A stretch of 64,000 bases of DNA from Escherichia phage LPEK22. The stretch lies in sequence record OK283619.1. One strand, written 5' to 3'. Shown one piece after another: positions 4,026 to 51,819 of this stretch. The stretch's first letter is position 1. Each line of letters starts with the position of its first letter. The notes below the pieces were generated by a model that had not been told where the DNA came from, searched no databases, and was given only the letters and a program-made list of their open reading frames with translations. A program made the translations under genes and the position numbers.

Positions 4026-4771
4026 TGGTTTCTCTACAGGCTTTGCGCAAACTTAATGACTTTGAAAATCGTCATCATACATTTCAGCAATATTCCTTGC
4101 CGTTTAAGGAACTGACTTGCGTAACTACCGAAAATGGTCGTCACTATGTTTCCCCCACTGGAGTCAAACTAACTTCAGTGACGACCATGTTAGGGCGTAC
4201 TGGTGACCACACATGGTTAGAAGCCTGGCGGGACAAGTTGGGGCATGAAGCTGCTGATATAGAAACACATCGTTGCGCAGACCGTGGGGAAAAACTTCAT
4301 TTGGCTTGTGAGTTGTATCTCAAAAACAGACCAATGAAGGAAGTTCTGGAAGCTGCAGGGGAATACGTGTTTATGTTCAAACAGGTTTTCCCCTACCTTA
4401 ACAAAATGAGCAAGATATATGCACAAGAGATTCCATTATATAGCGAAGTCCTGGGTCTTGCTGGTCGTGTTGACCTCATCGGGGTTTACGAAGGAATTCC
4501 AAGCATAATCGATTTCAAAACATCTAACACCCTAAAAACTCGAAGCATGATAGAAGATTATAGTATTCAATTGTGTCTATACTCAGTCATGTTTCAACAA
4601 ATGTTTAATGTCAAGATAGAGCGTTTAATCAATATTATATCCAACGAAAATGCCCTTGTTCCCACCATAATCGAATTCGATCGCAAAGACGTTATTTCTA
4701 AAATGTTTGACCGTGTCCGTCTGTATCACAAAATGAACAAAGAACAGAACGGAATCTGGGCGGATCGCTAA
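4025..4771 (+). CDS. PD-(D/E)xK nuclease, RecB/Cas4-like exonuclease family
   Basis: Motifs GRVDLIGV...IIDFKTS...QLCLY (D...D/E-x-K and QxxxY); start moved to ATG overlapping upstream stop. Confidence 0.5.
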   Translation: MVSLQALRKLNDFENRHHTFQQYSLPFKELTCVTTENGRHYVSPTGVKLTSVTTMLGRTGDHTWLEAWRDKLGHEAADIETHRCADRGEKLHLACELYLKNRPMKEVLEAAGEYVFMFKQVFPYLNKMSKIYAQEIPLYSEVLGLAGRVDLIGVYEGIPSIIDFKTSNTLKTRSMIEDYSIQLCLYSVMFQQMFNVKIERLINIISNENALVPTIIEFDRKDVISKMFDRVRLYHKMNKEQNGIWADR

Positions 4772-23911: not shown

Positions 23912-24199
23912 ATGTCCGGCGTATGGTGTGATGTATTGTTGGTAAGATTTTCAAACGGGATGGATAATCAGATCATTTCATTCTTTTATCCTGTTCCCTT
24001 TTCTTCTATGGGTCTGACTGTCAAGCGCGTTCTTGACATAGAAGAAAAACTCAACACGATGCCGTATATGGCGCGACCACACGTGCTGGGTTGTGAACTG
24101 TTAAACGAAATGATGATTGACGAGAATCTTGTTGAAACAATTATCACGCGTGAACAGATGAAAACCATACTGTCTCAGGGAGAACCCCATGTCGAATAA
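23912..24199 (+). CDS. hypothetical protein (95 aa)
   Basis: Start at internal ATG with GGAGGTG RBS. Confidence 0.4.
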   Translation: MSGVWCDVLLVRFSNGMDNQIISFFYPVPFSSMGLTVKRVLDIEEKLNTMPYMARPHVLGCELLNEMMIDENLVETIITREQMKTILSQGEPHVE

Positions 24200-24509
24200 A
24201 CCGTTTGAACTTAAATTTCGCGTTTGGCATATTCCCCAGGTTCCTGGGATCGCTTTTCATGTTGAGGTTCCAACATTTGAAGAAGCGCAGCGCCTGAAGA
24301 ATACTCTGGCTGATTACGACCTGTTTCAGTATAACAATAACATCAAGCCGGATTATTGTAATGCTTCCGGCGTTCAAATATACCAACATGATCTGACTGA
24401 AGAAGATCTAAATGATATGGGTCTGGATGATCGTTGGGTTGATATCGAAGATATTGACGAACTCAACGATTATTTTGATCATCTGCGTAGCACAGGGTGG
24501 GAAATATGA
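24189..24509 (+). CDS. hypothetical acidic protein (106 aa)
   Basis: ORF with RBS GGGAGA. Confidence 0.45.
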   Translation: MSNKPFELKFRVWHIPQVPGIAFHVEVPTFEEAQRLKNTLADYDLFQYNNNIKPDYCNASGVQIYQHDLTEEDLNDMGLDDRWVDIEDIDELNDYFDHLRSTGWEI

Positions 24510-33611: not shown

Positions 33612-33766
33612 TGGCTACTATTTGTTTGGTATTTTTGATTTTAATCACAATTTGTTCTGTGAATATGTGTTTACGCCACATAAACTCTGGAGAAATTATC
33701 TATGGTTTTATGTACGGTGGTGTAAGCGTTTGGGCAGCATACTGGTTAGCTGATACAATCATATGA
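33611..33766 (+). CDS. small hydrophobic membrane protein (51 aa), below ORF-track cutoff
   Basis: Translated manually: MATICLVFLILITICSVNMCLRHINSGEIIYGFMYGGVSVWAAYWLADTII; start and stop overlap neighbouring genes. Confidence 0.3.
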   Translation: MATICLVFLILITICSVNMCLRHINSGEIIYGFMYGGVSVWAAYWLADTII

Positions 33767-34092
33767 AAGTCGTCCACTTCAAGAAGGAACCACACGACGT
33801 CTACATTGGCCGTCCTGGCAAATGGGGAAACCCGTTCGAGGTCAAAGACCACGGGCGGGGAAACTGTATTGAGTTGTTTGAAGACGACTTGTATGTGCGC
33901 CTGATTGAAGGGGATATCACCGAAGATGAACTCCTTGAATTAGATGGAAAGACCTTGGGATGCTGGTGTAAGCCGCGCCCATGTCATGGAGATGTTTATG
34001 TCAAAGTGATCGGTCGTATTAAACTATTCCGTAAGTTGGGTAAATCTTTTACTGAATATTTGAGACAAACATATGTCAGAAGAGAAAGATGA
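33763..34092 (+). CDS. DUF4326-like protein
   Basis: GKWGNPF and GCWCKPRPCHGDVY match the recalled DUF4326 signature (CWCxPxxCHxD). Confidence 0.55.
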   Translation: MKVVHFKKEPHDVYIGRPGKWGNPFEVKDHGRGNCIELFEDDLYVRLIEGDITEDELLELDGKTLGCWCKPRPCHGDVYVKVIGRIKLFRKLGKSFTEYLRQTYVRRER

Positions 34093-34357
34093 AATTCAGA
34101 TTGCTTGTGATATCGCTGTCGAGTTATGGAATCAGCGAAACAAACATTATCAGGTGACGTTGACCCCAAAGCGTTATCTAGAGCAAGGTGGCTTAATAGT
34201 CGTTGATGCCGTGTTAGGTTTCAACAAATATACTGACATGCAAATCTTGGACGGGAATTTCACTATTGCTTCCAATACAGCTTGGGATGATCCTATGGAA
34301 TTTGTCTACGGTTGGTTGGAATGCATCGAGGAATCATACCATCTGATCTACGAATAA
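34073..34357 (+). CDS. hypothetical protein (94 aa)
   Basis: ORF followed by terminator hairpin. Confidence 0.45.
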   Translation: MSEEKDEIQIACDIAVELWNQRNKHYQVTLTPKRYLEQGGLIVVDAVLGFNKYTDMQILDGNFTIASNTAWDDPMEFVYGWLECIEESYHLIYE

Positions 34358-34361
34358 GGTG

Positions 34362-34393
34362 AAGGGCACTAAATATCACGTGCCCTTTATCTT
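34362..34393 (+). terminator. rho-independent terminator
   Basis: AAGGGCAC...GTGCCCTT hairpin followed by T-rich run. Confidence 0.6.
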
Positions 34394-34453
34394 TTAACCC
34401 TGTCAGGAGGCTCCAGCGAGCTGCAAGTCGACAAACACATAAGGAACGCCATC

Positions 34454-35071
34454 ATGACGATGACAACGTTGAAGGCCATGGCCTTGTCCGTGACCTTTAC
34501 CATTGCCAGCGGGAGTGTGCACGCTTCCCAAAGTACCACCCAATGTGATTACGAATTTTCTGATCAACAACTTTCAACCATGGCCACAGCCTATCACATA
34601 GGCAAACAACAAGACCTTGGTTTCACCCTCGCCGCGATATCATGGAGGGAAAGCCGCGCCGGAGAAGATGTTGTATCCATGCGGAATAACCTCAAATCGG
34701 CTAATATGGGGGCATTTCAAAATCGCGTCCAAACCGTCGGGAAACGGGAGGGATGCAAAACACAGAAGTGTTACGCCAATGTCGCGATCAAATTACTGGT
34801 CAATCAAGAGTACGCAGCCAATGCTGCCCTTGATGAAATGAATTTCTGGCTAGAATATCATAACCAAAACATCCGCAAATCCCTTTCCTCTTACAATGCC
34901 GGTTTCAGTCGTAACCAAAAATCCAATTCATACGCTGCTGATGTCGTGAAGAAGGCTAAATATCTTCAACGATGTGTGTCTTTCAAAGGCATGGCAATAA
35001 ACCCAAAGGTCGACCCAGGAGTGATCGCCATGAATAAGCGCACGATTGAGAAACTCAAGAGGACCAGATAA
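34454..35071 (+). CDS. secreted lytic-transglycosylase-like (SLT) protein
   Basis: Signal peptide MTMTTLKAMALSVTFTIASGSVHA; motifs SWRESRAG (ES), GAFQ, SYNAG resemble SLT-domain ES/GLMQ/AYNAG. Confidence 0.5.
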   Translation: MTMTTLKAMALSVTFTIASGSVHASQSTTQCDYEFSDQQLSTMATAYHIGKQQDLGFTLAAISWRESRAGEDVVSMRNNLKSANMGAFQNRVQTVGKREGCKTQKCYANVAIKLLVNQEYAANAALDEMNFWLEYHNQNIRKSLSSYNAGFSRNQKSNSYAADVVKKAKYLQRCVSFKGMAINPKVDPGVIAMNKRTIEKLKRTR

Positions 35072-35710: not shown

Positions 35711-35765
35711 ATATTCAATAAAAGGGGCAAAAGCCCCTTTACTTCTTCAATAACCCACGTATAAT
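35711..35765 (+). promoter_or_regulatory. terminator hairpin plus early promoter: -35 CTTTAC, 17 bp, -10 TATAAT
   Basis: AAAGGGGC-AAAA-GCCCCTTT hairpin fused to CTTTACttcttcaataacccacgTATAAT. Confidence 0.65.
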
Positions 35766-36167: not shown

Positions 36168-38549
36168 ATGGCCATCCCATCTTTCTTGAACTTTCTTGAA
36201 GAGTCTAAACAATTAGACGAAGCGTTTAACTCATCCCCGTATGAATTGACATTCGGCAAGAAGAACGCTGGCGACATTTTCTTCACATTTGTTGATGAAG
36301 ACGAAAAAGAATTCCGCATCCAATTTTATACCCCGCAGGGGCTGGGCAAGAACGTTCGTCAGGTCTTCATAGGCCAGAAACGTGGTTCGACCTATCCAGA
36401 CGCAATCGGTCGTTTCAAAAACCCAATGCGTGTCATCGCATCCATGATCGAAGCAACAAAGCAATTCATGGCGACGCCTTTGGGGAAAACCATTGACGGC
36501 TTTGCAATTAACTTCTCCAAGAAAGCATTGGAACGTGGTGTTACCCTCCTGCCGAAGATCATCCGTCAGTCCGGCCTGAAGCAGAAGCTCAATGTCATGG
36601 ACCTGACGTATACCCCTATCCCTGATCGTGCATTCGTATGGGTTGTGCGTAAAGGTAAGGATCCTGCTCAGGTATTCGATGGTCCGAAAATGAAAGGCGT
36701 GACTTGGGACGACCCAGACAAAGTCGGTGACGTTCCTGACCAGAAAAATAATCCTGATGTGGGTGTATCATCTTCTGTTGATGATTCCAACGGCTGGAAA
36801 TTAACTTCAGACGGGAATCAGCCTATGATGATATGGAGTGGTAGAGAGAAAGGTCGCTTAGTCACGGCAAATATCGCCCCTCACTACAATGAGCCTGGTG
36901 TGTATGTTGGTGCCTACATGAATGAGAAATCTGTGCGCGGACAAAGTGCTGATTTTATTGCTCGTCAGTTGAAATTACCGCAAGTCCCTATCAGTATCCT
37001 GAATGATTTTACCACGGCGTCCACAAAATTCTGGAAAGGTTCTCAACAGAAATCTGCGCCTGTAGATTCCAACACCACAATCGGTGCAACCAGCATCGAA
37101 CAACTGATCGACAGCGGTTTCGTCGCCCGTGTGTTGGGTATCATTGATACCAACATTGATCAGAAAGCAAGCTACCTCCCAGGAGAAAGCATTAAGAAAA
37201 TCGGACAGGCGCGTTATCAAACCAAAGGCGGTCTAGTGATCATTGTCAGCTTCGATTCGGTCGACGGTAAGAATCTGAAGTACAGCGTGTTCTCTGAGAT
37301 CGAAACTCAACCTGGTGTCATCTCTGGTGATGCTCGTCGGGTGGCAAACGAAGTCATGGAAACCATCACATACGTGGCTGAACATCAGTATCGCGGTGAA
37401 TGGGAAATCAACGCAGTGCCGATGAGCGCTCCATACCCTATCAAGTCCATCCGTCATTCTCGGGGCTGGGGCTATGTAGAGACCGCAAATTGGACTCTGA
37501 AAATAGCCGATGCGGTTCTGAATCGCGTGAAACCAGGGAATACCGCTCTGTTGGAACTCAACAAAGAGCCTCTGCGCGGCAAGCACCTTCTGGAAATCAT
37601 TCCAGAGAAGGGCGACAAGACTCTGATGCTAAAAGATCGCAGCGGAGCCATCTACGGTTCCATTGATCTGAATGCTCAGGGTGCGGATCTGGTCAACTCC
37701 GGAACCCTGAAAATCCCGAGCAACGCCATGGTATTTGGTGAGACTGTTAATGGTATGTCTGTCACATGGACTGGCGTCAATTTCCCGAAAGGCGGGAAGT
37801 ATGACGGCGCGGTGTTGACAACTAATGTGACCTATTACTACGACAAAGGTAAAGTAGCATTCACTCCGATGGTCTCTAACAAAGGTCGCACCCTGAACAA
37901 TCCGAAAACATATGAACTTCCTTTGAAGAAAGAATTTGTTCAAGGTGTTCTTGATGATACCTCTGACGAGATGAGTATGGTGACGAGGAACATGCAGACC
38001 CTCGTCAGCACGAATTACAACCCGAAACAAGTCTTCCTCAATGATATCTACGTGGACGACAGCGGCGCGGTGCTCTGGCGCGGCCACAACATGGGTGATC
38101 GCCGTACGACAGAGATCATGCTAAACGCCATAAGCAAAGAAACCGAACGTCTGGAAAAAGAACCAGGGACTACCAAGAAGACGGGTGTCGACCTCGCAAC
38201 ATATGCTGGTTCTATCCGCGACAATGCTCCGAAAGGGCGCGATCTGGATTGGCAGATCTATGCAAGCCGTGATGGTCAAACACTGAACGTGGACTGGGAT
38301 ATCACTTTCCGTCGCAATACGACCGAAGGAGCATATCGTGAATTCAAGGATCAGATCAACCGTGCCAACCAATACCTGCAAACGGTATACAACGACGCGA
38401 AATCTAAAGGCTATAATCCTACCGTGCCAAATCTCATGACTCTTGAACGCGCTCGCCAATCCGACGAATGGGCTGTGAGTAATGGTGATAGTGCATACAG
38501 TGAATATGAACAATCGCTGGGTGGTAATCTTCAGATTAGTCTGAAATAA
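36168..38549 (+). CDS. large hypothetical protein (793 aa)
   Basis: Long ORF with AGGAG RBS; no motif recognised. Confidence 0.6.
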   Translation: MAIPSFLNFLEESKQLDEAFNSSPYELTFGKKNAGDIFFTFVDEDEKEFRIQFYTPQGLGKNVRQVFIGQKRGSTYPDAIGRFKNPMRVIASMIEATKQFMATPLGKTIDGFAINFSKKALERGVTLLPKIIRQSGLKQKLNVMDLTYTPIPDRAFVWVVRKGKDPAQVFDGPKMKGVTWDDPDKVGDVPDQKNNPDVGVSSSVDDSNGWKLTSDGNQPMMIWSGREKGRLVTANIAPHYNEPGVYVGAYMNEKSVRGQSADFIARQLKLPQVPISILNDFTTASTKFWKGSQQKSAPVDSNTTIGATSIEQLIDSGFVARVLGIIDTNIDQKASYLPGESIKKIGQARYQTKGGLVIIVSFDSVDGKNLKYSVFSEIETQPGVISGDARRVANEVMETITYVAEHQYRGEWEINAVPMSAPYPIKSIRHSRGWGYVETANWTLKIADAVLNRVKPGNTALLELNKEPLRGKHLLEIIPEKGDKTLMLKDRSGAIYGSIDLNAQGADLVNSGTLKIPSNAMVFGETVNGMSVTWTGVNFPKGGKYDGAVLTTNVTYYYDKGKVAFTPMVSNKGRTLNNPKTYELPLKKEFVQGVLDDTSDEMSMVTRNMQTLVSTNYNPKQVFLNDIYVDDSGAVLWRGHNMGDRRTTEIMLNAISKETERLEKEPGTTKKTGVDLATYAGSIRDNAPKGRDLDWQIYASRDGQTLNVDWDITFRRNTTEGAYREFKDQINRANQYLQTVYNDAKSKGYNPTVPNLMTLERARQSDEWAVSNGDSAYSEYEQSLGGNLQISLK

Positions 38550-38554
38550 GTCAT

Positions 38555-38570
38555 AGCCCCTTCGGGGGCT
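38555..38570 (+). other. UUCG-tetraloop hairpin after the 793-aa gene (no U-tract)
   Basis: AGCCCC-TTCG-GGGGCT; same stem-loop recurs as the terminator after gene 32. Confidence 0.4.
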
Positions 38571-38600
38571 AAATACATCAAAATCCTTAGGAGATCCACG

Positions 38601-39170
38601 ATGAAACCGTTTATCGAATATTTTAAAGAACAAGCTCAACAACCGCAAACTCATGGCGGCATACAAGGCAAAAGTGTAACCATCACCAAACAGGCCGACG
38701 GAACCCAATGGTGTACTGGTGCCACCGTGACCCAGATCACTCCAGATAATCAGGCCGACATCTATAATCTGGAATTGACTAACGGCAACACCACCAAAGT
38801 AAAACTCACACCGGACCAGGTTCATGCGGTTTCTGTGGGCAAAGATGTTGTTGCCGTTCATGACGGTTTTGAGTTCTTCTTTGGGAAAGATGCCAGCAAA
38901 GGTCAGGTCACAGAATCCTATGCCCAAGAATTGGCGAACATGGATAAGATGATCGGTAAAGCGCTGGGCGTTGGCAAATCTCGTAAAAGCGGTCGTACAG
39001 AGTTTGAATATTCCGGTATTCCTGGTATTGGAAAACCTGTCGCAATCGACTTCGGCGGAGAAGACGATCCATATGTAATTGTCACAGTCGCTGGCAAACA
39101 GCATGACATCAGTAAGGGGAAAACCCTAGCTGCGGACATTGCCAAATATATTGGCGTTAAACCTGTCTAA
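38601..39170 (+). CDS. hypothetical protein (189 aa)
   Basis: ORF with AGGAG RBS. Confidence 0.5.
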   Translation: MKPFIEYFKEQAQQPQTHGGIQGKSVTITKQADGTQWCTGATVTQITPDNQADIYNLELTNGNTTKVKLTPDQVHAVSVGKDVVAVHDGFEFFFGKDASKGQVTESYAQELANMDKMIGKALGVGKSRKSGRTEFEYSGIPGIGKPVAIDFGGEDDPYVIVTVAGKQHDISKGKTLAADIAKYIGVKPV

Positions 39171-39179
39171 GGAGGTTGT

Positions 39180-39422
39180 ATGAAAGGATTCCAGGACTTC
39201 CTCTTGAAGGAAGCAAAGGTTGACCATCGCCGCCTTGGGCAGCAGGGCATGTACGACATCACGGATGTTGGTCGTCCAACCAAAGGCGAGCTGATCGATT
39301 ACTACAATCGCAACGGTGATAAGCGGCAGGGGAAAGTGAAGTCCGTGAACGCGCAAGACATCATGACCCTGACAGACACCGACACGGGTGAAACCGTCAA
39401 GATGACTCTGGTCAAGCCGTGA
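39180..39422 (+). CDS. hypothetical protein (80 aa)
   Basis: ORF with GGAGG RBS; followed by strong terminator. Confidence 0.45.
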   Translation: MKGFQDFLLKEAKVDHRRLGQQGMYDITDVGRPTKGELIDYYNRNGDKRQGKVKSVNAQDIMTLTDTDTGETVKMTLVKP

Positions 39423-39426
39423 TTAC

Positions 39427-39458
39427 AATCCCCCTAAATACAGGGGGATTTTCTTTTT
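39427..39458 (+). terminator. rho-independent terminator
   Basis: AATCCCCC...GGGGGATT hairpin followed by TTCTTTTT. Confidence 0.7.
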
Positions 39459-39471
39459 AGGGGTAAATATC

Positions 39472-39825
39472 ATGGTCAATGCGAGTATATTCATCAACCG
39501 TGGACTGCTTGCTATAGCCCACTCTCATGCCCTCCACTTCGTTACAACGTCCTATGCCAAGCACAAGGCACTCGGGGAGTTCTACGGGGAACTGGAGGAC
39601 TTGCTAGACACCTTTACGGAAGCGTATATTGGTGCGGGTGGTATATACATTCCAGGATTCGAGAACATCAAATTGTACAATCCTGAACCGATATCGTATA
39701 TCAACAGCGTGGTCATCGACGTTAATGGGATCTACAATCAGTGTGATAGCCATTTACAAAACACGCTTGACGAAATCAAAACTTTGTGCTATCAAACGAT
39801 TTACAAACTGAAGCAATTGTCCTAA
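39472..39825 (+). CDS. hypothetical protein (117 aa)
   Basis: ORF only. Confidence 0.45.
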   Translation: MVNASIFINRGLLAIAHSHALHFVTTSYAKHKALGEFYGELEDLLDTFTEAYIGAGGIYIPGFENIKLYNPEPISYINSVVIDVNGIYNQCDSHLQNTLDEIKTLCYQTIYKLKQLS

Positions 39826-43094: not shown

Positions 43095-43889
43095 ATGGCC
43101 ATTCTAAAACTTGGCAACCGAGGTTCTGAAGTCAAAGCACTTCAACAAAGCCTCAACAAAATCGGTTTCTCCCTTACAGCCGATGGCATATTTGGTAAGG
43201 CAACAGAGAATGCTGTCAAATCCGTTCAGGCAGGTGCTGGATTGGTTATTGATGGTATTGCTGGACCAAAGACCTTCTATGCTATCCGCAACGCTGGAGA
43301 CGCTCATCAGGAACATCTGACCGAAGCGGACTTGGTTGACGCAGCACGTGAACTTGGTGTTGAGCTGGCCAGTATGAAAGCGGTGAACCAGGTAGAATCC
43401 CGTGGCACGGGTTTTACCAAAACTGGCAAGATCAAAACTCTGTTTGAGCGCCACATCATGTACAAAAAGGTGACGGCCAAATTCGGGCAAGCAAGAGCCA
43501 ATGCTCTGTACCAACTCTACCCAACATTGGTTAACCCCAATTCTGGCGGGTATATCGGCGGAGACGCGGAGTTGGAACGCCTTCAGGGTGCAATCACCCT
43601 TGACGAGGACTGCGCTTACGAGAGTGCTTCCTACGGCCTATTCCAGATCATGGGGTTCAACTGCCAAATCTGTGGATATCCAAATGCCAAAGAGATGTTC
43701 ACTGATTTCCTGACTGGTGAACGCGCTCACCTTCTGGCATTTGTCAAGTTCATCAAGGCTGATGCCAATATGTGGAAAGCCCTGAAGAACAAGAATTGGG
43801 CCGAGTTTGCTCGTCGGTACAATGGTCCGGCATATGCGAAAAACCAGTATGATACTAAACTGGCGGCAGCATACAAGAGTTTCTGCTAA
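43095..43889 (+). CDS. endolysin: N-terminal peptidoglycan-binding domain plus C-terminal muramidase-like domain
   Basis: PG_binding_1-like LKLGNRGSEVKALQQSLNKIGF...DGIFGKATENAV...DGIAGPKT; C-terminal ES/GLFQ block; track start TTG, ATG with GGAGG RBS chosen. Confidence 0.7.
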   Translation: MAILKLGNRGSEVKALQQSLNKIGFSLTADGIFGKATENAVKSVQAGAGLVIDGIAGPKTFYAIRNAGDAHQEHLTEADLVDAARELGVELASMKAVNQVESRGTGFTKTGKIKTLFERHIMYKKVTAKFGQARANALYQLYPTLVNPNSGGYIGGDAELERLQGAITLDEDCAYESASYGLFQIMGFNCQICGYPNAKEMFTDFLTGERAHLLAFVKFIKADANMWKALKNKNWAEFARRYNGPAYAKNQYDTKLAAAYKSFC

Positions 43890-50193: not shown

Positions 50194-51819
50194 TCATGCG
50201 CCTTTACCACCAAAATTGCCGCCGTTATCCTCTAACTCCGGTTTTATATCAATTGGACCTGGGCCTGTAGTTGTTACAGGAGTTGCCCCCGCACGTGAGG
50301 CGGCGCGACCAGCGCCTTCAGCATATTTGATGTTGCCTTCAATAGTCTGCGCCACCGACAACTTATCACAAACTATTTCACTAGCCAGTATTTTAGGCAC
50401 TTTCAAAGTATTGGAAACTTCCAACATTTCACAGATGAGACGCAACACGTTCTGTGCCTGTATCTCAGCCAATTGGGAAAATTTCATCAACGCTGTTCCA
50501 GCGACCACATTGGAATAGTTAGAAGAGTGTAAGTGGTAAACTTCTCCTTTCTTGCGCTGTACTTCAGTCCCACCAATTGTCAGGTTATGATCACCCCCCA
50601 CATAATAACGTTTGTCGAACATCGTCAGGTCATAATGATCTTTGACTGATTTATTAACAACATCACCGTCAGGAAGCATTTGCTTGTAAGACCCAGAAGA
50701 GTGCATCCAATGCAAACGTTCCCCGCCTGGAGTGTCATCGACCTCCATAATATGCCCAGCGCGAGAAGCCATAACATTGTTGTATGGATAACGAGACCCC
50801 CCAGCCGAAGGAACCGATACCTCTCCTGTGTTGTCAATATCCTGAACACGACCAGAAGGAGGCGGTGTTTCTTGGACTTTCGGGGTACGATCCGGAATAG
50901 GTTCAGACCATTTACCATTTTGTTGTGCCGGAGCTGCTGAAGCTGTAGTTGCTGGACCTGGCCAACGATAACCCAACACGGATGAGCGGCTAAAACGGCT
51001 CACCTTCACAGAATCGGATTGGTTTCCCCCGATACACCAAACGTAGTTGGCGTCAAATTTCTGAACGAATGCAACGTGACCGAATGTCGGGTTGTTCCCG
51101 CGCCGGAACACTACAACAGCGCCGTAACGTGGTTCTGACAGAGGAGACCCCCATTGTAAATATGAACGAGCCAAAGCAGAACGTGTTGATGTATATCCGG
51201 CCTGTATCAGAACCCATCCGACAAACGACGCACACCAACTAACTTCATCTTCTGACGCCCCCAGGGAAGTTGTCTTATGATATTCCAATATCCTTGGGTT
51301 GTTATTGAACTTACCAGAATATTCTTTGACACCCAATTCCCCACGAGCCACGGTCATCCACTTCTCAGGATCATATCCGTCTACTGGTGGTTGTGGATCC
51401 GGTTGCGGTTCATCCTCAATCTTAACAGGAACATTCTCGACGGCATTATACTTCTGCCTTTCTATAGATTGAACGACCTGACCCAGCGCCAATGGGTTTG
51501 TATCTGACCCATCTGTTGGTGTTGCTGCTGGCCATACCCATGCAATACGGATGTTCTGATATGCTTCATCCAAAGCAAACCCCATGACGTCAGAGCCGAC
51601 AGTGATACCCGTCGGAGACCAGCCTAAACCTGCCGAGGAGGCGTTAGATGCTGGCATAAGCATTTTACCCCAAGGCAATAATTCGGTAGGCAGGAGAGTG
51701 GTATCCTCCGTGTGTACCCCATAGATGCGTACTGCGACGCGCCCGTTTTGATCGGGATCATTCACGTCTTCAACGCGCCCGTAAAACCAACGCAAGTTGT
51801 CTAACATATTGAAACCCAT
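50194..51819 (-). CDS. 5: baseplate central spike (gp5-like) carrying a CHAP/NlpC-P60-type peptidase domain
   Basis: N-terminal OB motif VEDVNDPDQNGRVAVRIYGVH; middle CHAP-like WCASFVGW (Cys) and GHVAFV (His); C-terminal beta-helix-like repeats; late promoter upstream. Confidence 0.75.
   Translation of the reverse strand: MGFNMLDNLRWFYGRVEDVNDPDQNGRVAVRIYGVHTEDTTLLPTELLPWGKMLMPASNASSAGLGWSPTGITVGSDVMGFALDEAYQNIRIAWVWPAATPTDGSDTNPLALGQVVQSIERQKYNAVENVPVKIEDEPQPDPQPPVDGYDPEKWMTVARGELGVKEYSGKFNNNPRILEYHKTTSLGASEDEVSWCASFVGWVLIQAGYTSTRSALARSYLQWGSPLSEPRYGAVVVFRRGNNPTFGHVAFVQKFDANYVWCIGGNQSDSVKVSRFSRSSVLGYRWPGPATTASAAPAQQNGKWSEPIPDRTPKVQETPPPSGRVQDIDNTGEVSVPSAGGSRYPYNNVMASRAGHIMEVDDTPGGERLHWMHSSGSYKQMLPDGDVVNKSVKDHYDLTMFDKRYYVGGDHNLTIGGTEVQRKKGEVYHLHSSNYSNVVAGTALMKFSQLAEIQAQNVLRLICEMLEVSNTLKVPKILASEIVCDKLSVAQTIEGNIKYAEGAGRAASRAGATPVTTTGPGPIDIKPELEDNGGNFGGKGA

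Follow-up and report, generated by a model that had tools for sequence, protein, structure and literature searches.

The stretch of DNA analyzed here, which we call the window, is a 64,000-nucleotide (nt) sequence of Escherichia phage LPEK22 (OK283619.1), a Kuttervirus of the family Ackermannviridae (Vi1/CBA120-like). Positions 34454-35071 encode a 205-amino-acid (aa) protein with the motifs of a soluble lytic transglycosylase (SLT) behind a predicted signal peptide. A Shine-Dalgarno sequence (AAGGA, about 34442-34446) lies ~8 nt 5' of the ATG at 34454. Over the 2.5 kb around the gene, the window shares 97-99% identity with Salmonella and Escherichia phages, including SF02, FEC14, and GG32, and the protein itself is 100% identical in Salmonella phages heyday and Sajous1. 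Our analysis points to a secreted peptidoglycan enzyme of the T4 Vs.1 type, encoded apart from the phage's endolysin.

The SLT-like protein is the Kuttervirus orthologue of T4 Vs.1, an identification that is well supported by sequence comparison. It matches PHROG 600, a family of "unknown function", over 173 of 178 positions (E 9.3e-60), and BLASTP aligns it with RB27 vs.1 at 32% identity (E 2e-20). A tblastn search placed homologues in some 2,100 phage genomes, most of them from Ackermannviridae, T4-like Straboviridae, or FelixO1-like phages. In RB27 and T4, the homologue is vs.1, which is flanked by regB and vs; that of FelixO1 is ORF3, annotated as a "hypothetical 20.7 kD protein in vs-regB intergenic region"; and the record of Shigella phage Ag3 names its orthologue Vs.1. 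Members of the family are single-domain proteins of about 170-205 aa with an N-terminal signal peptide.

Vs.1 proteins resemble family 1 lytic transglycosylases. The initial annotation had proposed an SLT domain for the protein, and the corresponding Pfam profile (PF01464) does match it, at 21.4 bits against a threshold of 21.3 (E 2e-4; 97 of 117 profile positions). In a diverse set of 87 family members, 77 independently match this profile as well, at E<=0.01 (best 1.3e-7), and no second family recurs in the set. NCBIfam returned no match for the window protein. The fold is lysozyme-like, an alpha-helical catalytic fold. The PDB entries that the family profile matches, weakly, are g-type lysozymes; these alignments run end to end and place the WxES.G segment of the query on the lysozyme SRES.AG segment, which holds the catalytic glutamate (Glu73). 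A predicted placement in GH23, as a family-1-type lytic transglycosylase, is thus well supported.

The bioinformatic SLT assignment is already known. It is not new because both the UniRef cluster name ("Transglycosylase SLT domain-containing protein") and a 2006 report precede it; the latter described vs.1 orthologues with marginal SLT similarity (E 0.012-0.74) and cited earlier PSI-BLAST results (Nolan et al., PMC1524935). A 2024 review of the Ackermannviridae does not mention the gene. Our result brings no new concept either; it amounts to a well-supported reassignment together with some leads.

The active site is conserved across distant relatives. An exhaustive hidden Markov model search of 1.84 billion representatives returned 600 clusters at E<=1e-3; the distant set comprised the best 147 representatives, at <50% identity, and the 87 family members were aligned separately. 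The ES, GAFQ, and SYNAG motifs described in the initial annotation are present as E66-S67, G86-A-F-Q89, and S146-Y-N-A-G150 and are conserved in the family. E66, G86, F88, Q89, N90, Y147, N148, G150, and Y160 are invariant in the 87 members. Among the distant representatives, Glu66, Tyr147, and Gly150 are each retained in 144/144, position 67 is Ser in 136 and Thr in 7 (143/144), and Gly86, N148, and Tyr160 are kept in 139/144, 126/144, and 137/138, respectively. Position 89 is divided between Q (70) and H (55), with the His subgroup mostly bacterial. The alignment therefore bears out the catalytic Glu that had been singled out for checking, and Tyr160 may correspond to MltE Y192 and Slt70 Y587. 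From these residues, the protein is very probably catalytically competent.

The predicted chemistry is lytic transglycosylation rather than hydrolysis, because the extra carboxylate of g-type lysozymes and EtgA has no conserved counterpart in the family. The hairpin that follows motif I varies at positions 71/72 (K/L/E/R and Y/N/K/D) and holds no conserved Asp/Glu, while the conserved E128 sits in a distant helix.

A predicted periplasmic location of the protein is well supported. The open reading frame (ORF) and its signal peptide are as first described, and the n/h/c pattern extends through the family: about 83 of the 87 relatives show it, and the others resemble N-terminally truncated gene calls. 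The N-terminus, MTMTTLKAMALSVTFTIASGSVHA followed by SQ, combines a Lys-containing n-region with a 15-residue uncharged core and a V-H-A c-region, and can be laid out as MTMTTLK-AMALSVTFTIASGSV-HA before the SQ. No lipobox was found in it. Read by the AxA rule, cleavage would fall after A24, and the expected neo-N-terminal peptide would be SQSTTQCDYEFSDQQLSTMATAYHIGK. In the AlphaFold2 model, residues 1-27 are disordered.

Cysteines co-occur in pairs within the family. Among 234 members, C31 and C174 are both present in 74, both absent from 141, and single in 19; for C101 and C106, the respective counts are 14, 216, and 4. Because each pair's cysteines co-occur, we read C31-C174 and C101-C106 as putative periplasmic disulfides. 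Cys174, the partner of Cys31, directly precedes the Ackermannviridae-specific C-terminal extension, which AlphaFold2 models with high confidence (predicted local distance difference test score 93-95) as helices 188-193 and 195-204.

Table 1. Features of the Vs.1-type gene, its transcription unit, and the other wall enzymes of the window.
Feature	Position	Strand	Remarks
GC-rich hairpin (14-bp stem) followed by T-run, terminator-like	34356..34397	+	dG -20 kcal/mol, z -5.45
Conserved 5' leader with small stem GGCTC/GAGCT and Shine-Dalgarno	34398..34453	+	
CDS of predicted Vs.1-type secreted lytic transglycosylase	34454..35071	+	ATG start; 205 aa plus stop
Predicted Sec signal peptide, aa 1-24	34454..34525	+	Predicted cleavage between VHA and SQ
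Motif I, putative catalytic Glu66-Ser67	34649..34654	+	E66 invariant in family
Motif II, G86-A-F-Q89, GLMQ equivalent	34709..34720	+	G86 139/144 in distant representatives
Motif III, S146-Y-N-A-G150, AYNxG equivalent	34889..34903	+	Y147, G150 144/144
Distal Tyr160, candidate motif IV tyrosine	34931..34933	+	137/138 in distant representatives
Ackermannviridae-specific C-terminal extension, aa 175-205, basic helix at end	34976..35068	+	Not in T4/FelixO1 homologues
DUF7270 gene, 212 aa	35071..35709	+	Start overlaps SLT stop codon (TAATG)
Terminator-like hairpin and T-rich tail after DUF7270	35721..35748	+	RNA fold dG -13.6 kcal/mol, z -3.8
Endolysin	43077(TTG)/43095(ATG)-43889		PG_binding_1 (E 3e-16) and Muramidase PF11860 (E 3.9e-58; N-acetylmuramidase domain)
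gp5-like baseplate hub	50194-51819	-	Gp5_OB and CHAP; no lysozyme domain, unlike T4 gp5

The SLT gene and the DUF7270 gene probably form a two-gene, late transcription unit that is insulated from upstream early/middle transcription. We read them as a unit because hairpins stand at both ends, the stop and start codons overlap, and the CTAAATA motif and leader are conserved. The downstream protein matches Pfam DUF7270 at E 2e-120, and searches by sequence found no solved relatives of it. Its orthologue in LIMEstone1, ORF085, is a "confirmed structural protein" (PMC3296691). The adjacency of the two genes is conserved in divergent Ackermannviridae, and the LIMEstone1 record places a factor-independent terminator at the site equivalent to 35721-35748.

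The upstream hairpin folds better than any of 200 shuffled sequences, carries CTAAATA in its loop (34369-34375), and is conserved in Sajous1 and LIMEstone1. The position of CTAAATA at -84 to -87 is kept also in L009, a metagenomic relative. CTAAATA is the core of the Viunalikevirus regulatory motif CTAAATAcCcc (cited in PMC7283392), which resembles the T4 late promoter; the T4-type late promoter TATAAATA itself does not occur near the SLT gene. The window has six copies, all of them on the coding strand, and five of these are followed by an ORF start; two such ORFs, at 38601 and 39472, encode virion proteins, and the LIMEstone1 record marks late promoters there. The hairpin and CTAAATA look like a combined terminator/late-promoter module that would stop read-through from upstream genes and start late transcription. 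The ~80-nt leader that follows (34376-34453) is nearly invariant in the window, Sajous1, LIMEstone1, and L009, the last of which encodes a protein just 55% identical. The loop of its small stem varies, and Rfam has no match to it. This leader is probably a regulatory element. We found nothing relevant in the literature on Kuttervirus transcriptomes.

Other copies of the motif have related settings. CTAAATA sits in the loop of a GC hairpin with a T-run at both 34369 and 39434 (hairpin regions 34356-34397 and 39427-39456), and at 38569 it directly follows a hairpin and T-run (38555-38575). Further copies occur at 4768 and 54176. At four sites, the motif is 23-31 nt upstream of the ORF start.

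Upstream of the unit lie gp47/gp46-like recombination nuclease genes, DUF7175, DUF4326, and a small ORF. The gene of the DUF4326 protein (33763-34092, E 3e-24), which is named "NrdA.1" in relatives, stands between the SLT unit and the recombination nuclease genes, a position that it keeps in the divergent Ackermannviridae L009 and L011.

We consider it likely, with considerable room for doubt, that the protein is an exported, competent GH23 lytic transglycosylase of the Vs.1 type that serves in accessory remodeling of the sacculus during infection. Its gene would be transcribed with DUF7270, insulated by the hairpin from the recombination genes and probably from the late-type CTAAATA promoter. 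The protein would be made in the infected cell and exported through the Sec pathway, losing its signal peptide of ~24 residues, and its two disulfides would form in the periplasm. There, Glu66 would act as the single acid/base catalyst and cleave the MurNAc-beta-1,4-GlcNAc (N-acetylmuramic acid to N-acetylglucosamine) bonds of host peptidoglycan. The ends produced would most likely be 1,6-anhydro-MurNAc, because the family lacks a conserved second carboxylate such as that of g-type lysozymes. The most likely role would be an accessory loosening or remodeling of the sacculus from the periplasmic side that helps envelope disruption. What the sequence analysis shows directly is the ORF, its homology, the fold, the conservation of the motifs, the signal-peptide pattern, and the anatomy of the operon; we infer export, the disulfides, transglycosylase instead of hydrolase chemistry, timing, and physiological role.

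Several observations weigh against this interpretation. The Pfam score of the window protein is only 0.1 bit over threshold, and the sequence matches of the family profile in the PDB are not significant (E 0.13 or worse). Export, the cleavage site, and the disulfides are predictions. The literature on Vs.1 homologues yielded no enzymatic or genetic data, only the 2006 genome comparison. The count of CTAAATA in the window is not above chance (6 found, 6.3 expected); only strand and position are suggestive. In T4, vs.1 is transcribed early and its protein is found from mid-infection on (PMC9697503 supplement), whereas the Kuttervirus gene would be late-type, so timing differs and the role may differ between phage families. 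Assistance in lysis is a guess, against which stands that T4 cells with Vs.1 from mid-infection do not lyse early; for the same reason, any wall damage by Vs.1 must be limited. Finally, a purely periplasmic enzyme would not account for the strong signal in Sajous1 virions (31 spectra, discussed below), unless carry-over produced it.

That signal raises the alternative that the protein is a virion-associated peptidoglycan enzyme, opening glycan strands at the next infection and complementing the CHAP hub. Sajous1 gp211, which is 100% identical to the window protein and labeled RegB, gave 31 spectra in CsCl-purified virions, more than the baseplate hub/"tail lysozyme" (20) and far above the clear contaminants (1-11) (PMC10892097 Table 6). 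The gene follows a late-type promoter motif and would share its transcript with DUF7270, whose LIMEstone1 orthologue is a confirmed virion protein, and a cluster of virion proteins detected by mass spectrometry is encoded just downstream. Moreover, the gp5-like hub (Gp5_OB and CHAP) has no glycosidase, and the clade-specific C-terminal extension might serve as a docking element. However, the signal peptide and periplasmic disulfides would place the protein beyond the inner membrane from virion assembly, and T4 vs.1 is an early/middle gene. The orthologue ORF086 is not among the 39 LIMEstone1 virion proteins, although single-peptide contaminants were detected there (PMC3296691), and the phiR1-RT homologue Gp114 is missing from a particle proteome of 78 proteins. 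A peptidoglycan-binding enzyme could also co-band with wall or outer-membrane debris. The virion proteomics check suggested in the initial annotation therefore divides, with Sajous1 positive and the LIMEstone1 and phiR1-RT particles negative. The simpler reading of the Sajous1 signal is that the protein was carried over with wall debris or bound after lysis. We regard a virion function as unlikely, although the signal is strong enough to keep it in consideration. A more specific version, in which the Kuttervirus enzyme is made late with DUF7270 and becomes virion-borne or virion-decorating by attachment through its C-terminal extension, possibly after export and lysis, is slightly less likely still. 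If true, the enzyme would supply the glycan cleavage that a CHAP-type hub lacks, and a Sec-exported protein would, unusually, have joined an infectious tailed-phage particle.

In phiR1-RT, the Vs.1 homologue is g114, so g121, a "non-toxic control" that encodes a virion protein and is associated with low transformation efficiency, was rejected as a candidate. The particle proteome lacks the g114 product, and g114 is likewise missing from the toxicity screen. The genes at 36168-39825 of the window correspond to Sajous1 gp214-217 (196, 32, 20, and 10 spectra, respectively). Their products, of 793 aa, 189 aa, 80 aa, and 117 aa (DUF5856), are without functional annotation, and sequence searches of Pfam and the PDB gave no relative of the 793-aa virion protein. 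The matching run in LIMEstone1, ORF078-082, consists of confirmed structural proteins.

The phage encodes three wall enzymes: a tail CHAP peptidase, a muramidase endolysin, and the predicted exported transglycosylase. The canonical endolysin that the initial annotation set apart, at 43095, is indeed a separate ORF with PG_binding_1 and Muramidase domains, and the core of that interpretation, an exported SLT-like enzyme distinct from the endolysin, is supported. Since the hub is a CHAP peptidase/amidase with no lysozyme domain, the tail-tip enzyme is expected to cut peptide/amide bonds and not glycan. Relatives of the window phage annotate this hub as "hub subunit and tail lysozyme".

The SLT-like protein might instead be a second, Sec-exported endolysin with a direct and substantial share in lysis or its timing, as signal-peptide or signal-anchor-release endolysins do. 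Its predicted export, muralytic fold, and intact active site would suit this function, as would the late-type promoter context in Kuttervirus. Yet the window encodes a complete endolysin and a spanin pair (about 21.2-22.3 kb, by the heyday annotation), and the SLT-like gene adjoins neither the spanins nor the endolysin (43.1 kb). It also lies outside the lysis cassettes in LIMEstone1, FelixO1, and T4, and in T4 the protein is present from mid-infection without lysis. Because it has a signal peptide and no lysis-cassette neighbors, the protein falls outside the canonical holin-dependent endolysin class. A second endolysin is thus improbable.

A part in phage-phage or phage-host conflict, through superinfection exclusion, resistance to lysis from without, or an anhydromuropeptide signal, is more doubtful still. 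The periplasmic location invites a circumstantial comparison with T4 Sp and Imm, which are likewise periplasmic; the T4 gene is expressed before lysis; and conservation spans three families of virulent myoviruses. Against this, no PADLOC model matches, there is no experimental hint, and the gene is unlinked to the GP17-type superinfection-exclusion gene of the window at 24189. That ORF (24189-24509) matches PF17420 (E 1e-49) and is unusual for a virulent Vi1-like phage.

The initial annotation had left room for an inactive decoy, and we find an inactive peptidoglycan-binding protein hard to credit. Nothing beyond the marginal Pfam score of one sequence speaks for it. Degenerate enzymes normally lose such active-site residues, whereas here Glu66 (144/144), Y147 (144/144), G150 (144/144), and Y160 (137/138) persist in relatives at <50% identity, and purifying selection on these positions makes a decoy unlikely.

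Least credible, to the point of being negligible, is a RegB-type site-specific endoribonuclease, which is favored by database labels only (18 of 60 listed Ackermannviridae records and two further database entries) and contradicted by the lysozyme-like fold, by the Vs.1 annotation in Shigella phage Ag3, and by a BLASTP comparison with authentic RegB that aligns just 21 residues (E 1.3). We reject the identity on this comparison and on the T4/RB27 gene order, in which RegB is the neighboring gene of the homologue, vs.1. The RegB label is annotation drift from that neighboring T4 gene. It takes the form of RegB, "endoribonuclease RegB family", or "RNA endonuclease"; another 2 of the 60 listed records label the gene an MltF-like transglycosylase. 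The Sajous1 virion proteome table files the protein, as RegB, under DNA/RNA processes.

Relatives of the phage proteins also occur in cellular genomes. Across 185,579 species genomes, a scan turned up 71 loci, nearly all of them from enterohepatic Helicobacter, Wolinella, and other Campylobacterales; the scan was seeded by a pattern from an eight-sequence alignment, so seed bias applies and taxonomic restriction is not proven. These homologues (e.g., loci L014, L019, L025, L033, L045, and about 65 more) are 28-36% identical and have their own signal peptides. They keep E-S, G-x-[YF]-H, S-Y-N-x-G, and the distal Tyr, and thus carry the His variant of motif II. None matches Pfam SLT at E 0.01. 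In several species, they stand beside glyS (PF02092, E 4e-170), which points to a housekeeping gene of the chromosome rather than to one of a prophage. The clade is apparently an unannotated housekeeping transglycosylase related to the phage proteins. No Vs.1 homologues were found in the plasmid collection at E 1e-3.

The assignment matters beyond one phage. Vs.1 is among the conserved T4 ORFs whose function stayed open for decades. Its homologues span at least three virulent myovirus families (T4-like, Vi1-like, and FelixO1-like) and ~600 clusters at 50% identity, which suggests that the function is broadly useful to phages of Gram-negative hosts. In dozens of Ackermannviridae records, the wrong RegB label hides a peptidoglycan enzyme, and that enzyme is the most abundant "non-structural" protein in the published Sajous1 virion preparation. 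Kutterviruses are used in biocontrol and therapy, where an extra exported muralytic enzyme would be relevant to lysis behavior and to enzybiotic mining. With a CHAP hub that lacks lysozyme, the division of labor among three wall enzymes becomes a tractable question.

The protein predicted from the window resembles several known systems and differs from each of them. T4 Vs.1 (P13311, "hypothetical 20.7 kDa protein in vs-regB region") is alike in size class, signal peptide, and invariant motifs, but the Kuttervirus protein adds four cysteines and a 30-residue C-terminal extension, and its gene follows gp46/47 and is paired with DUF7270, whereas vs.1 lies between regB and vs. Compared with the family 1 lytic transglycosylases (Slt70, MltC, MltD, MltE/EmtA, and MltF), it is a minimal soluble single domain of ~180 mature residues, with no lipid anchor and no superhelical, LysM, or ABC-type substrate-binding-like module; similarity to these bacterial enzymes is at the detection limit, and the window protein comes from a virulent phage. 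The hairpin Asp of EtgA (D60), from the type III secretion system of enteropathogenic Escherichia coli, has no conserved equivalent in the Vs.1 family, and unlike EtgA-type enzymes, the SLT-like gene is unlinked to secretion or pilus machinery. Goose-type lysozymes are GH23 hydrolases that use additional catalytic Asp residues, for which the Vs.1 family has no conserved counterpart; their matches are not significant (E 0.13-1.4). Finally, the SLT domains of virions, such as those of T7 gp16 (N-terminal), phiKZ gp144, and tape-measure or internal proteins, reside in large, cytoplasmically assembled proteins without signal peptides, whereas the Vs.1-type enzyme is free-standing and predicted to be exported.

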